From a candidate division WS1 bacterium (GTDB lineage Bacteria; Armatimonadota; Zipacnadia; Zipacnadales; UBA5352): a DNA stretch of 64,000 nt. Position numbers and translations under genes: made by a program. The notes under the pieces were generated by a model, which worked only from the letters and a program-made list of their open reading frames with translations, was not told the DNA's origin and did not search any database. The stretch spans positions 18,635 to 82,634 of the forward strand of contig PXBW01000079.1 in the NCBI GenBank assembly GCA_003566775.1. The letters run 5' to 3'. Below are positions 21,834 through 40,294 of the stretch, one piece after another. Position 1 is the stretch's first letter; every line of letters starts with the position of its first letter.

Positions 21834-22645
21834 CAGTTCCCTTCGACTGCGGCTATCTGACCGCGCAGGAATTCTACCACCTGCTCGATGTTGTCCTCTT
21901 TCGCGTACTCGATTATGAGGGGCACATCATCCAGCTCCATCAGGCGCTCGATGAAGCGCGCCCAGTCAACGTCGCCCTCACCCGCCGACGGGAAGCTCGG
22001 CTTCCCATCCTCATCGACTATGCAGTCCTTGGCGTGAGCGAGTACGATCTGCTCCCCCAACACATCGAAGGGGCGCTCGGTGGAGTCGTAGCAGAGGATG
22101 TTCGCGGGATCGAGCAGTACCCTGAGGTTGGGGCTGCCGACTTCCTCGATCAGGCCGCGCATCGTCCAGGAGTTGGGGATCGTCTGTCTGTATGACGGTT
22201 CGACGCAGACGGTGATACCCGCCTCCTCGGCGAGCGGCACGATCTCGCGGAAGGAGGCCACGCAGCGCTCGAAGCCGGCCACGCCCCGGCGTCCGGCCTC
22301 GGTCACTATCGTGTCACAGCCGAGGCCGGGGGCGATGGAGATCGCTCCCTTCATCGCCTCAACGGCCGCCTCGCGCGCGGCGTCGTCCGCGGCGCTCAGG
22401 TCATTGTAGGAGTCCAGCGCCCAGGTATCGAGGCCCGCGTCGTTGAATGCGGTGGCGATCTTCGCGATGACCTCGTCCGGGAACGCGGCTGGATTCATGT
22501 TCGGATGGCGGCTGGAGTATTCGGGGTACTCCTGATATGTCGTTGGCACCGCCACACCCTGGAGGCCGAGAGCCGCAATCCTGGGGGCGGCCTCATCGAC
22601 GGGATGATTGCGCGTGAAGATGATGGCTCTTACGCCCAGTCTCAC
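21833..22645 (-). CDS. sugar phosphate isomerase/epimerase (xylose-isomerase-like TIM barrel)
   Basis: AP-endonuclease-2 / xylose-isomerase-like TIM-barrel motifs (VCVEPSYRQT, LDPANI, AHAKD). I place the start at the GTG near 22645, which has a GGAGTGAG RBS. The ORF track extends to 22900 with an Arg-rich leader. Confidence 0.7.
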   Translation of the reverse strand: MRLGVRAIIFTRNHPVDEAAPRIAALGLQGVAVPTTYQEYPEYSSRHPNMNPAAFPDEVIAKIATAFNDAGLDTWALDSYNDLSAADDAAREAAVEAMKGAISIAPGLGCDTIVTEAGRRGVAGFERCVASFREIVPLAEEAGITVCVEPSYRQTIPNSWTMRGLIEEVGSPNLRVLLDPANILCYDSTERPFDVLGEQIVLAHAKDCIVDEDGKPSFPSAGEGDVDWARFIERLMELDDVPLIIEYAKEDNIEQVVEFLRGQIAAVEGN

Positions 22646-36986: not shown

Positions 36987-37475
36987 TCACAATCGCTTCG
37001 CGTCCTCAGTCTTCATAATGTAATGTATCTGACGCACGATCTCCTCGAAGCCGAAGCGTGGATAGAGGCCCTGCCCCGGCTCATTGGTGGCCAGCGTCTC
37101 TATCTTGATCAGGTCCATTCCCGCGTCTTCAAAGCGGTCGATCGCGGCGTTGATGAGGCTTGTGCCGATACCCTGTCCCTGGGTCTCGGGCGCAACCGCG
37201 AGATTTGGAATGCGTCCGATGCCGGAGAGTTCATCGGTGATCGTGGTTATGTATCCGAGTACTTCACCGTCTTCATTCTCCGCGACAAGCACCCCCTCGG
37301 GTTCCGCCTCGATATCCGCGTCGATCTCGACGCACTTGCGCTCCGCCCATGTCGTTCCACGGAGCTTGCCGTACATTCCCTCGAGCTTGCCGTGAATCGA
37401 TGCGTCACGGAACGAGCTTGAGGTAATTTCGTGCAGCCTCTCACGGTCTTCTTCCCGGTACTGCCTTATGTGCAT
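36987..37475 (-). CDS. GNAT-family N-acetyltransferase
   Basis: Acetyl-CoA binding motif (QGQGIGTSLINAAIDRFEDAG). Start MHIRQYREED with a GGAGG RBS at 37475. The ORF track extends to 37550. Confidence 0.8.
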   Translation of the reverse strand: MHIRQYREEDRERLHEITSSSFRDASIHGKLEGMYGKLRGTTWAERKCVEIDADIEAEPEGVLVAENEDGEVLGYITTITDELSGIGRIPNLAVAPETQGQGIGTSLINAAIDRFEDAGMDLIKIETLATNEPGQGLYPRFGFEEIVRQIHYIMKTEDAKRL

Positions 37476-37774
37476 CGTAATCCTCCTCGTGCAGATCGAC
37501 GGCATGGGGGGAACTCTATCGCGGAACTCGTCCCAATCGTACCGTGGCAAATCATTGCTGTCAAGATCGTGGCGGTGGGGGGGAGCTTGCGGGACCTCCT
37601 CAATGACAGCATCGGCCGCAAACTACGGCAGGTGATCGGCCAAAGCACGCGCTCACGAACGACACAATCGGCACCGGGAGCGGGACAGTCCTCCGGGCGT
37701 GTGGGGGCGACGCAGAAGAAAGCCAGCATTCGTTCGCTGCACCGCATCCAGAGCTGATGCGGATTGCGGAGTTG

Positions 37775-37803
37775 TTGACTCGACCACGCCGCTGTGCTAT
37801 CTT
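37775..37803 (+). promoter_or_regulatory. putative sigma-70 promoter (TTGACT -35, 17-nt spacer, TATCTT -10) driving the homocysteine-biosynthesis operon, followed by a ~250-nt leader
   Basis: TTGACTcgaccacgccgctgtgcTATCTT seen directly. The long untranslated leader contains SAM-riboswitch-like sequence fragments; see findings. Confidence 0.45.
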
Positions 37804-38056
37804 CCCAGTAGTGACATAATCCCCGTTGACAGCACATATTCCGCTTAACGGTGGCGGAGAAGATGAGATCGGTCAGGCCGCATATTCCGCAGATTGAGGT
37901 GAAGCAACCAACGGTTGAGCTTCCAGGCCGACCGCTGGTTCTGATGCCTCAGGATTAGAGGGGCCCCGCCCGGTCGATTTATCCGCGACTACGGGCAATG
38001 GGGCCTTCTATCGTGTACGGGAACGTTGGCTTGCACTTGAGGACAGGTCGGACAGG

Positions 38057-39358
38057 ATGCAGAGGGCCGCTTCAAGCCGGGCGATGCTTGAGCGATGCGA
38101 GACCTCCTCTGCTGTCCAGGTGGATGAGAGAGTGATCGAGGTGCCGAAGACTTACGAAGAGATCAACGCAAAGATAGGCGCTGGCGACGTGGTGGTGGTC
38201 ACCGCCGAGGAGATGGTGGATGTCGTCGATGACCTCGGAGCCGAAGAGGCCGCGGAGAAGATCGACGTGGTCACCACCGGAACCTTCGGCCCGATGTGTT
38301 CATCGGGGGCCATGATCAACGTCGGGCACGCAACGCCCCGGATCCGCATCTCGCGCGCGTGGCTGAACGACGTGCCTGTCGGCTGCGGTCTGGCGGCGGT
38401 AGACCTGCACATCGGTGCGACCGAGGTGGCCGAGGGAGATCCGCTCAACCGCGAGCATCCGGGCCTGTTCGAGTATGGCGGTGCGCACGTGATAGAGGAC
38501 CTGATAGCCGGTAAGGACGTCCGGCTTAAGGCGCTATCCTACGGGACTGACTGCTATCCGCGGCGGGAGCTTGACACCTGGGTGAATATAGCGGACCTGA
38601 ACGAAGCCTACATGCTCAATCCACGCAACGCATATCAGAACTATAATGTGGCGGTCAACAAGTTCGCCGACCGCGACATATACACCTACATGGGCGTGGT
38701 GAAGCGGGGCCTTGGCAGCGCGAACTACTGCTCGGCGGGACAGCTAAGCCCGCTGCTCAATGATCCACACTACCGGACCATAGGAATCGGTTCAAGGATA
38801 TTCCTCGGCGGCGCTCAGGGCTTCGTCTACTGGCAGGGAACCCAGCACGATCCTACCTGTGAGCGTACCGAGGGGGGAGTGCCCACCGGCGGCGCCGGGA
38901 CTCTCGCGACCGTTGGTGACCTCAAGCAGATGGACAAGCGCTATGCGATGGGAGTGAGCATGTACGGCTACGGGGTCTCCCTTGCACTGGGGATCGGCAC
39001 GGTGATTCCGATCCTTGATGCCGAGATGGCGCGGTTCACCGCCGTCAGCGACGCAGAGATCGTGGCTCCGGTCATAGATTACAGCCATAACTACGGACAT
39101 AACGAGGGCGAACCTCTCGCACATGTCTCCTACGCAGAACTGAAGAGCGGGGCGATCGAACTCGAGGGAAAGACCGTGCCCACCACGCCTCTGTCCAGTT
39201 ACGTGCGCGCAAGAGAGATCGCACAGAAGCTCAAAGAGTGGATCGAGCAGGGGCAGTTCATGTTGAGTGAGCCGGTGCAGGCGCTCCCGTCGGCGGAGGA
39301 ATCCGCGGGATTCCGCCCGCTGAAGCATCGTCCGGTCAAACAGGAAGGCGGCGAATGA
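38057..39358 (+). CDS. homocysteine biosynthesis protein, COG1900/DUF39 family (methanogen-type sulfur-incorporation enzyme, MA1821-like)
   Basis: 433 aa, full-length similarity pattern to DUF39. Immediately followed by its canonical NIL-ferredoxin partner. True start may be an internal Met (MLERCE). Confidence 0.8.
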   Translation: MQRAASSRAMLERCETSSAVQVDERVIEVPKTYEEINAKIGAGDVVVVTAEEMVDVVDDLGAEEAAEKIDVVTTGTFGPMCSSGAMINVGHATPRIRISRAWLNDVPVGCGLAAVDLHIGATEVAEGDPLNREHPGLFEYGGAHVIEDLIAGKDVRLKALSYGTDCYPRRELDTWVNIADLNEAYMLNPRNAYQNYNVAVNKFADRDIYTYMGVVKRGLGSANYCSAGQLSPLLNDPHYRTIGIGSRIFLGGAQGFVYWQGTQHDPTCERTEGGVPTGGAGTLATVGDLKQMDKRYAMGVSMYGYGVSLALGIGTVIPILDAEMARFTAVSDAEIVAPVIDYSHNYGHNEGEPLAHVSYAELKSGAIELEGKTVPTTPLSSYVRAREIAQKLKEWIEQGQFMLSEPVQALPSAEESAGFRPLKHRPVKQEGGE

Positions 39359-39359
39359 G

Positions 39360-39776
39360 ATGGCTGAGAAAGCTGAGACAAGGGTGGTCCTGCATTTTCC
39401 GAAGGCGCTGCTGGACAAGCCGTTGACATCAACCGTGGTACGGCGATTCAATCTCGACTTCAACATATTGCGGGCCGATGTCGGGCGCGACCAGGAGGGA
39501 CTGATGGTGCTCGGCCTCGTGGGTGCCCCTGAGAGCATCGAAGGCGCCATCGAGTGGATGCGCGAGCAGGGAGTGCGCGCGCAGCCGCTGGAACAGGATG
39601 TTCTGCGGGATCGCGATCGCTGCACAGACTGCGGGGCGTGTATCGTGATCTGCCCGACCGACGCACTTGTGATCGACCCTCAGACAGGCGAGGTCATCTT
39701 CAACGCCGACGAGTGCGTGGCCTGTGGCATCTGTGTCCCGGTCTGTCCACCTCGCGCGATGTCGATCAAGTTCTGA
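39360..39776 (+). CDS. NIL-domain plus 4Fe-4S ferredoxin protein (COG2122-type partner of COG1900, MA1822-like)
   Basis: 138 aa. N-terminal NIL-like domain, then two CxxCxxCxxxCP ferredoxin motifs (CTDCGACIVICP, CVACGICVPVCP). 2 nt after the upstream gene. Confidence 0.85.
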   Translation: MAEKAETRVVLHFPKALLDKPLTSTVVRRFNLDFNILRADVGRDQEGLMVLGLVGAPESIEGAIEWMREQGVRAQPLEQDVLRDRDRCTDCGACIVICPTDALVIDPQTGEVIFNADECVACGICVPVCPPRAMSIKF

Positions 39777-39814
39777 GTCGGTGCCGCTGGTGCCTCCGGA
39801 TGGACAATAAATAA

Positions 39815-39837
39815 GCCCGCGGCTCGAAGCCGCGGGC
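39815..39837. terminator. bidirectional intrinsic terminator hairpin GCCCGCGGC-tcgaa-GCCGCGGGC
   Basis: Perfect 9-bp stem between convergent genes. T-rich flank on the minus-strand side (TTATTTATTGT) and CATTTGTCAT on the plus side. Confidence 0.6.
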
Positions 39838-39871
39838 CATTTGTCATCCTGGCTCCTGTGCATTGCGCCTC

Positions 39872-40294
39872 TCAGATCTCCCAGACGGTCTCTCCTTCAT
39901 CTTCGAGACCCGGCCCACCGTCCTCCATGCTCTGGAAGATTCGCTCAACGAAGGTAAGAAGCTCTCTCGGATTGAACGGCTTGGTGAGGTAAGAGCTTAC
40001 CCCTGAAGACCAGCCACGGAAGATGTCCGCATCCTGAGCCTTCGCGGTGAGCATGATCACCGGAATGTCCTGTGTATCCGGATCAGCCTGAAGGCGCTTT
40101 AGCGCCTCGAAGCCGTCCATGCGGGGCATCATCACGTCGAGCACGATCATGTCGGGTTCTTCTTCCTCAACCTTCTCGAGTGCCTCCACGCCGTCGTAGG
40201 CGGTCACAACGTCGTAGCCGGCCCGGGTCAGGTTGACCTCCACCAACCGCACGATATGTCGCTCGTCATCAACTACGAGAATCTTCTTCGCCAT
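39872..40294 (-). CDS. single-domain response regulator (CheY-like receiver)
   Basis: KKILVVDDERHIVRLVEVNL...DMIVLDVMMPRMDGFE...LTAK: receiver domain with phospho-acceptor Asp and conserved Lys. 140 aa, no output domain. Confidence 0.85.
   Translation of the reverse strand: MAKKILVVDDERHIVRLVEVNLTRAGYDVVTAYDGVEALEKVEEEEPDMIVLDVMMPRMDGFEALKRLQADPDTQDIPVIMLTAKAQDADIFRGWSSGVSSYLTKPFNPRELLTFVERIFQSMEDGGPGLEDEGETVWEI

Follow-up and report, generated by a model that had tools for sequence, protein, structure and literature searches.

A conserved, unclassified leader with a short open reading frame and a terminator-like hairpin precedes the HcyBio gene pair of an uncultured Armatimonadota lineage

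The window analysed here is a stretch of 64,000 nucleotides (nt) from a candidate division WS1 bacterium of the Armatimonadota (assembly GCA_003566775.1, contig PXBW01000079.1, positions 18,635 to 82,634 of the forward strand), and this report concerns the transcribed leader in front of its HcyBio gene pair. Positions are those of the window. A Pfam search bore out the gene pair that an earlier, sequence-only reading of this DNA had named, a DUF39/COG1900 protein with a NIL-ferredoxin partner. The protein read from 38057-39358 is HcyBio/DUF39 with a full-profile match to PF01837 (E 1.7e-146), and its adjacent partner at 39360-39776 matches PF09383 (1.1e-15) and PF00037 (5.8e-14). The pair is present in all relatives. 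A PF01837 gene adjoining a gene for a NIL domain and 4Fe-4S ferredoxin motifs is what marks members of the homocysteine pathway of the MA1821/MA1822 type. The role of the window's pair is taken from work in which genetics in Methanosarcina and Desulfovibrio tied the DUF39 and NIL/ferredoxin homologues to homocysteine formation from aspartate semialdehyde (PMC5764234).

The start codon of HcyBio sets the length of the leader. The database has an identical protein of 433 aa (P0001), for which ATG 38057 is taken as the start. Because the nearest database homologues, which are named Armatimonadota or Armatimonadia, are 404-408 aa long and begin with MPKTY, the true start is most likely GTG 38141, 28 codons downstream, and the public gene model is probably too long by that number. 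With this start the leader comes to about 330 nt and not to the roughly 250 nt first given for it. The features of the locus, all on the plus strand, are as follows (ORF, open reading frame; MFE, minimum free energy).

37775-37803, plus strand: sigma-70-type promoter, -35 TTGACT at 37775-37780 and extended -10 TGTGCTATCTT at 37793-37803 (promoter scan)
37850-37865, plus strand: Shine-Dalgarno sequence GGTGGCGGAG and ATG 37863-37865 of the leader ORF (conserved position)
37863-37958, plus strand: leader ORF, 31 codons and TAG, peptide MRSVRPHIPQIEVKQPTVELPGRPLVLMPQD (frame conservation)
37886-38020, plus strand: conserved leader core, match to covariance model R1 (120.4 bits, E 1e-25)
37896-37950, plus strand: P1/P2 hairpin inside the leader ORF (MFE, covariation)
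37959-38013, plus strand: terminator-like hairpin GGGGCCCCGCCCGG...CGGGCAATGGGGCC with U-rich tail TTCTATCG (MFE, covariation)
38011-38020, plus strand: invariant block TCGTGTACGG just 3' of the hairpin (conservation)
38021-38140, plus strand: spacer from the putative attenuator to HcyBio, including the HcyBio ribosome-binding site (alignment and translations of the relatives' cysK-HcyBio spacers)
38141-39358, plus strand: HcyBio/DUF39, L-aspartate semialdehyde sulfurtransferase type, 405 aa from GTG 38141 (PF01837)
39360-39776, plus strand: partner protein with a NIL domain and two 4Fe-4S ferredoxin motifs, MA1822 type (Pfam)
39815-39837, plus strand: intrinsic terminator at the operon end, bidirectional and common with the convergent response-regulator gene (terminator scan)

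The promoter TTGACT-17-TATCTT, already pointed out from the sequence, was recovered by the promoter scan with 9 of 12 matches and a TG upstream of the -10. It is kept in 14 related loci, where it aligns as TTGACA-N12-TGTGCTATCNT. Transcription is predicted to start near 37810. Upstream, 37476-37774 is a divergent intergenic region bordered by a GNAT acetyltransferase gene on the minus strand (likely start ATG 37475). It contains no Pfam-matching ORF, which agrees with the earlier statement that 37476-37770 lacks a convincing one.

The relatives used for comparison are the loci of the nearest HcyBio proteins (76-86% identity) together with four loci from a metagenome pattern scan, in which four of 16 candidates were true loci; single loci are cited by our own handles (L081 and so on). 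Their usual gene order is gltX, promoter, a leader of about 200 nt, cysK (TIGR01139, 426 bits), a small upstream ORF (uORF), HcyBio and NIL/Fer, with a convergent response regulator and then an FGGY kinase 3' of NIL/Fer. From the hairpin to cysK the relatives have 45-60 nt, and no promoter was found in that gap. The window and L081 are without cysK and most of the second uORF, and there the leader is joined almost directly to HcyBio.

Covariance-model scans with Rfam 15 covered the whole 64-kb window and 15 related loci, and 37400-38200 was scanned at E<=10 as well. No match at gathering score was obtained anywhere in the window or in the 15 related loci. In 37400-38200 at E<=10 only three chance-level C/D snoRNA matches appeared (E 1.8-5.9). 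At that threshold this segment gave no match to the S-adenosylmethionine (SAM) riboswitch models SAM-I (RF00162), SAM-IV (RF00634), SAM-I/IV (RF01725), SAM-II (RF00521) and SAM-III/SMK (RF01767), to the SAM-V, SAM-VI, SAM-SAH and S-adenosylhomocysteine (SAH) models, or to the T-box (RF00230). No T-box sequence is present, and the conserved leader element and the terminator arm do not overlap as in a T-box antiterminator. The scan was sensitive: at HcyBio loci elsewhere it recovered SAM-I (86-95 bits) upstream of the gene in six of 18 loci from other phyla, these six carrying annotations as Bacillota, Clostridia or related taxa. In L007 a T-box (134 bits) was found immediately before the gene. 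HcyBio genes are commonly under Met/SAM-responsive leaders, and the leader in the window is none of the described ones.

The sequence-only reading had proposed a divergent SAM-I/SAM-IV riboswitch or, failing that, a different cis-regulatory RNA. The former is not supported: SAM, SAH and T-box models all fail to match, in the window as in the 15 related loci, and the motifs listed as SAM-core-like are not conserved in the relatives; none corresponds to a SAM core. The fragment GGTGGCGGAGA is the ribosome-binding site that belongs to the leader ORF, and the GCAACC box lies in one arm of a hairpin that is variable in sequence between relatives. The two copies of CATATTCCGC do exist (37835-37844 and 37881-37890, the sole two in the window, with 0.08 expected by chance), but their resemblance to a SAM core did not hold and the repeat is absent from the relatives. 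As a separate observation, these copies are specific to this genome and flank the Shine-Dalgarno sequence and start codon of the leader ORF. Each can pair with GCGGAG of the Shine-Dalgarno sequence, giving two alternative small hairpins.

What is conserved is a core of about 135 nt (37886-38020). The model R1, built from 11 sequences, gives one match per locus, only in close Armatimonadota relatives and always before the first gene of the operon. It recovers loci outside its training set (L107 with 114 bits, L106 with 63 bits) and has no match in 79 HcyBio loci of other lineages. The only other R1 match in the window lies within a coding region (22439-22504, E 1.2). The leader 5' of the core measures 60-125 nt and varies between relatives in length and predicted fold. 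On these differences the possibility of a conserved aptamer in the first 60-125 nt was rejected. As a whole, the leader of the window folds no more stably than its shuffles (z score -0.5), and only the two hairpins of the core stand out.

Contrary to the description of the leader as non-coding, a conserved ORF of 31 codons lies at 37863-37958. A Shine-Dalgarno sequence of the GGUG/GGAG type stands 3-10 nt before an in-frame AUG or GUG in 12 of the 14 relatives, and also in L109, which was found later; this start lies about 31 codons upstream of a conserved stop. Over the 30 codons before the stop, the 12 ORF-bearing loci have no stop in 360 in-frame codons, compared with 37 and 12 out of frame. 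All share one frame, CAG AUU/AUC GAG GUG A.., then a hairpin, then AUG AUG NCG NNN NNN and the stop. Indels inside the ORF are of 3 or 6 nt only, the AUU/AUC changes are synonymous, and UAA, UAG and UGA are all used at the same stop position. Gene callers have annotated the ORF in three public contigs, and searching a protein database for the leader peptides gave three called ORFs. Aligned, and with no gaps needed, the peptides read ..IEV(K/T)xPxIxxxGRSxxMM(S/T)xx followed by the stop. Of 13 ORFs, 11 have two or three successive Met codons (-5/-4 from the stop), with three codons between them and the stop. Every ORF-bearing locus has 2-4 nt between its stop codon and the terminator stem that follows. 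The parts expected of an attenuator leader, namely a short ORF with its ribosome-binding site, start and frame, are thus conserved in the relatives, and we infer that the ORF is translated. The loose conservation of the peptide is consistent with a leader peptide whose importance lies in its frame, the structure and a few of its codons. A five-codon mini-ORF (MMSQL and stop), started by GAGGUGA across the hairpin, had also been considered and was superseded by the 31-codon ORF with its own ribosome-binding site, though some internal initiation is conceivable.

Two hairpins make up the conserved structure. The one inside the ORF (37896-37950) has an MFE of -25.6 kcal/mol (z score -3.7), and equal stability was reached by none of 200 shuffles. 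Its 5' side is the invariant Shine-Dalgarno-like GAGGTGA (37896-37902), its 3' side is the region of the Met codon, and its inner stem shows compensatory changes in four of five pairs. The spacing from GGUGA to GAUG is 40, 37 or 34 nt in all relatives, and length changes are therefore whole codons. A K-turn or C/D-like reading of GGUGA...UGAUG, made by eye, was given up because this segment is in frame and its motifs amount to Met codons and a Shine-Dalgarno-like element. The second hairpin is GC-rich and terminator-like (37959-38005, MFE -28.8 kcal/mol, z score -2.7), and its stem begins 2 nt past the leader stop. Here, too, there are compensatory changes, for example GGCUCC/GGAGCC in L106 for GGCCCC/GGGGCC. 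In the relatives the hairpin is followed by tails such as UUUUUU and UGUUUU, which the terminator scan flagged. A candidate intrinsic terminator is thus placed between the leader ORF and the first structural gene, as in an attenuator, with a weak tail in the window.

In a model-fitted alignment of both hairpins, 10 of 25 pairs showed double-sided changes, a number reached by none of 500 shuffles, and the proposed structure paired 93.5% of cells compared with 28-48% for slid registers. This alignment was fitted to R1 and hence leans towards the structure; the helices were also predicted by RNAalifold on a plain MAFFT alignment. The check for covariation in homologous leaders that the sequence-only reading had suggested thus found a covarying structure with a terminator-like hairpin, and its second option, a different cis-regulatory RNA, holds. 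Just 3' of the hairpin, the TGTACG of the block at 38011-38020 is identical in 15 of 15 relatives. A long-range helix between the 5' region and TCGTGTACGG, drawn by eye, was inconsistent across sequences and was discarded. In some of the loci L102, L109, L095, L103 and L101 the apical loop of the terminator hairpin reads CCACCUC or CCCACCUU. This loop resembles an anti-Shine-Dalgarno sequence and is complementary to the invariant GAGGUG; it was not seen in the window. In L101 the loop carries a second copy of GAUGAUGUCGCA.

On balance we lean towards reading the leader as a ribosome-dependent transcription attenuator before HcyBio, with its signal and the sign of its response left open. Ribosome-mediated attenuation is preferred over a classical metabolite aptamer because the conserved part is an ORF, free of in-frame stops where the other two frames have 37 and 12. 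In such an attenuator, transcription would begin a few bases past the conserved promoter, and the 31-codon ORF would be translated through the conserved hairpin and past the Met codon or codons to a stop 2-4 nt before the GC-rich hairpin. If no ribosome stood at the end of the ORF when the polymerase completed this hairpin, the hairpin would form and transcription would halt before HcyBio; in the relatives the halt would precede cysK, the second uORF, HcyBio and NIL/Fer. If a ribosome instead occupied the last codons or the stop, about 8 nt of the 5' arm of the stem would be covered, as estimated from standard ribosome footprint sizes, and the polymerase would read through. Expression of the operon would then be set by the manner and speed of leader translation. 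Occlusion is the simplest working model because there is no room between stop codon and stem: in every ORF-bearing locus the ORF ends within about 10 nt of the terminator stem, as in occlusion attenuators of the pyrE/pyrBI type. For the pyrE attenuator it has been found that moving the upstream stop codon nearer to the attenuator loop improves pyrE expression (PMC4166923).

Since SAM-I or a T-box occupies the corresponding position before HcyBio genes of other phyla, Met-pathway control is to be expected here. Supply of Met-tRNA(Met) is a likely input because Met codons are clustered in the leader and the second uORF of the same operon bears the motif MxMAM. The substitutions proposed for the window's Met codon, ATG37944, are CTG and ATGATGATG.

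Several observations weigh against this interpretation. No mutually exclusive antiterminator helix was found when the arms of the ORF hairpin were paired with those of the terminator by RNAduplex, the duplexes being no better than those of shuffles. Energies for the A:C, A:D and B:C combinations had z scores of -2.2 to +1.9, mostly about 0, compared with hairpins that themselves stand out, and the best alternative pairing partners were not at homologous positions across relatives. A classical antiterminator was rejected, since no arm combination was significant against shuffles. The geometry raises a second difficulty. If starvation held a ribosome at the Met codons, a gap of 4-6 nt would be left between it and the stem, whereas a ribosome at the stop codon would cover the stem; under pure occlusion, shortage of Met should therefore lower expression. 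The predicted response is opposite to that of the SAM-I and T-box leaders of the same genes. The window (Met codon 37944-37946) and L084 have one Met codon each. Variability is nearly flat over the three codon positions (0.80, 0.87 and 0.90), with almost no three-base periodicity, and GAGGUGA is invariant beyond coding needs, third codon positions included, a hint that the RNA itself has a function here. By comparison with the relatives' tails, that of the window, UUCUAUCG, is weaker, and it was not flagged by the terminator scan. L081 and L083 have lost the leader ORF, with AUCGACA in place of AUGAUG and no open frame, and the sample amounts to about 13 distinct sequences from one narrow clade. 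As a separate observation, promoter and terminator-like hairpin are both retained in these two close relatives (L081:2727-3000 and L083:135-366, 83% and 86% HcyBio identity).

The problem of sign means either that the input is something else or that the kinetics are unlike the simple occlusion picture. A metabolite acting on the invariant GAGGUGA/AUGAUG hairpin or on the nascent peptide is a possible input, and so is control of leader initiation. In the window, the Shine-Dalgarno sequence of the leader can pair with either UUCCGC copy.

Sensing of a metabolite could be built into the attenuator or could replace it. In the first case, which we consider unlikely, a sensor would lie inside the translated ORF: either the GAGGUGA/hairpin/AUGAUG RNA or the nascent 31-aa peptide would bind a metabolite of the sulfur pathway, candidates being SAM, Met, homocysteine and O-acetylserine. 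Ligand binding would then decide whether the ribosome reaches the stop in time to mask the intrinsic terminator, and the leader would be an undescribed hybrid of a riboswitch or arrest peptide with attenuation by occlusion. In the second case GAGGUGA, the hairpin and AUGAUGNCGCA would form a new metabolite-binding riboswitch with SAM, SAH, Met, homocysteine or O-acetylserine as its ligand. It would govern the terminator either directly or through the ribosome, whose progress, or whose internal initiation at AUGAUG, it would slow or block, and the open frame would be secondary. GAGGUGA and AUGAUG are indeed invariant at the nucleotide level, third codon positions included, and RNAalifold pairs them in a helix enclosing the covarying hairpin; the same gene context holds SAM-I in other phyla, and the expected off-switch logic would be easily explained. 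Yet this P1 helix is without convincing covariation (its variable pair is AU in seven sequences, GC in one, GU in one and mismatched in three), the aptamer-sized 5' part ranges from 61 to 126 nt without a common fold, and no Rfam family matches. The element and the terminator arm do not overlap, nor is there an antiterminator, and preservation of frame, indels in multiples of three and mixed stop codons would be unexpected in a pure RNA element, so that we hold a stand-alone riboswitch to be rather improbable. A divergent member of a known SAM class (SAM-I, SAM-IV, SAM-I/IV, SAM-II, SAM-III, SAM-V, SAM-VI or SAM-SAH) is most improbable. It has in its favour only the gene context, that is, SAM-I before HcyBio in other phyla, and against it the lack of any model match in 37400-38200 at E<=10 and of any gathering-score match in the window or the 15 related loci, as well as the fragments that are not conserved.

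Two further explanations keep the ORF and change its meaning, and to neither do we give much credence. A ligand-dependent arrest peptide of the TnaC/SpeFL type would have the 31-aa peptide and a small molecule stall the ribosome near the stop and so mask the terminator. In its favour are an ORF length that hardly varies (30-33 codons for 10 of 13 ORFs, similar to what the exit tunnel spans), the recurrence of P(-16), G(-10), R(-9) and M(-5/-4), each a set distance from the stop, and the hairpin adjoining the stop codon. Most positions of the peptide vary freely, however, codon periodicity is absent and L087/L091 (26 codons) and L106 (about 22 codons) have shorter ORFs, which makes arrest improbable; nor was any likeness to known arrest motifs found, though no search aimed at one was made. 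Alternatively the ORF may be a self-standing small-protein gene that has a terminator of its own, or a relic in decay with no regulatory role in this genome, HcyBio being expressed by read-through or from another promoter. That L081 and L083 keep the operon without the ORF, that the window has lost cysK and the second uORF in a region in flux, and that the window's U-rich tail is weak are consistent with this. On the other side, promoter, ORF, hairpins and the TGTACGG block occur together in 13 loci down to 76% HcyBio identity, the hairpin-cysK gap of the relatives is only 45-60 nt with no promoter found in it, and the peptide is too variable for a structural small protein.

Besides the candidate attenuator, the relatives carry a second uORF between cysK and HcyBio (L082:2838-3005, L001:3833-4016, L004 and L002) with the motif ..V(V)M(R/P)MAM(R/P)(Q/E)RPG... 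In 10 loci, among them relatives of 69% identity without the main leader, 108-121 nt separate its last AUG from the HcyBio start downstream. Five nt past this AUG is a covarying hairpin of 7-8 bp, AGCGUCCC-N5-GGGACGCU, to which L004 adds UUUUU. From its sequence the second uORF seems to be an attenuator in its own right, also based on Met codons, whose hairpin would be covered by a stalled ribosome, and the operon of the relatives may thus offer two different translational sensors for one pathway. In the window the 3' end of the spacer, ..GAGAGAGTGATCGAG with stop TGA 38133-38135, is a remnant of this Met-rich uORF; only the last codons are left (38100-38135).

Another structured RNA, of about 150 nt and conserved in the relatives, lies between gltX and the operon promoter. 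It reads GUGAACAU..GCGCGUCA.., then UUUGGUGGGGGANGAGGGUGCUGUCCCCGCCAGCACCCAANUCCCCCGCCGU and a U-rich tail, and was seen at L082:1430-1560, L085:1450-1590, L102, L103, L106 and others; the window holds a degraded remnant at about 37693-37730. Its inner stem shows three compensatory changes (L084, L102 and L103), and it has no Rfam match. It could be an element of the gltX 3' untranslated region or terminator, or a small RNA. At the other end of the operon, the gap that separates the NIL/ferredoxin gene from the convergent response-regulator gene (39872-40294) contains a strong bidirectional terminator, GCCCGCGGCTCGAAGCCGCGGGC (39814-39838), for which the terminator scan gave 10-11 pairs and a T-rich tail on each strand.

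Classical attenuators offer the nearest comparison. Like trpL, hisL, leuL, thrL and the actinobacterial leaders, the leader described here has a promoter and a short ORF served by its own ribosome-binding site. A hairpin lies within that ORF, candidate regulatory codons are separated from the stop by three codons, and a putative intrinsic terminator comes before the biosynthetic operon. The E. coli trpL peptide ends in WWRTS and stop, compared with MMSQL and stop in the relatives. Unlike the trpL-type leaders, it has no 2:3 antiterminator that we could find, and the 2-4 nt between stop and stem leave no room for one; moreover, its candidate codons are for Met and the predicted starvation response is of the wrong sign. 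We know of no characterised attenuator acting on Met codons, and Met-codon attenuators are to our knowledge almost unheard of. In TnaC and SpeFL, leader peptides of 24-34 aa act through a ribosome held at the stop that controls downstream termination. These systems employ Rho-dependent termination, serve catabolic operons and have strongly conserved peptides, whereas the peptide of the window's leader is weakly conserved and faces an intrinsic terminator.

The geometry is closer to that of E. coli pyrE (rph-pyrE) and pyrBI, where the ORF ends just before or inside the terminator hairpin, a ribosome close behind the polymerase prevents the hairpin and the distance between stop and attenuator matters (PMC4166923). 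The signal in those operons is polymerase pausing dependent on uridine triphosphate, while the operon here is one of sulfur amino acids; no U-rich region for such pausing was identified in the leader, though no search aimed at pause signals was made. In that respect the Streptomyces lividans metL leader before metNIQ, a proposed leader of 29 aa (PMC8079986), and the mycobacterial polycysteine uORFs (bioRxiv 10.1101/834739) are more alike, with Met or Cys codons near the C-terminus and a place before sulfur amino-acid genes. For the mycobacterial Cys-responsive uORFs, stalled ribosomes have been shown to block regulatory RNA structures and thereby to control downstream expression (bioRxiv 10.1101/834739). 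Both differ in being leaderless, unrelated in sequence and dependent on sequestration of the ribosome-binding site or without a clear terminator, compared with a Shine-Dalgarno-led ORF and a terminator-like hairpin adjoining the stop in the window. A stop set against a terminator without an antiterminator is an unusual geometry, and the leader offers a compact test case for gating of intrinsic termination by ribosome position.

With SAM-I (RF00162) and the Met T-box (RF00230) the leader has in common its position and the downstream genes that these elements control in other phyla, and it probably shares their physiological purpose. It differs in sequence and structure, and its conserved core is an ORF. 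The tie of HcyBio/DUF39 to methionine metabolism came partly from SAM riboswitches. The clade is uncultured and narrow, which limits practical reach. The leader of this Armatimonadota lineage is a conserved, unclassified regulatory leader and not a SAM riboswitch, and beside SAM-I and the T-box it represents a third mode of HcyBio control.

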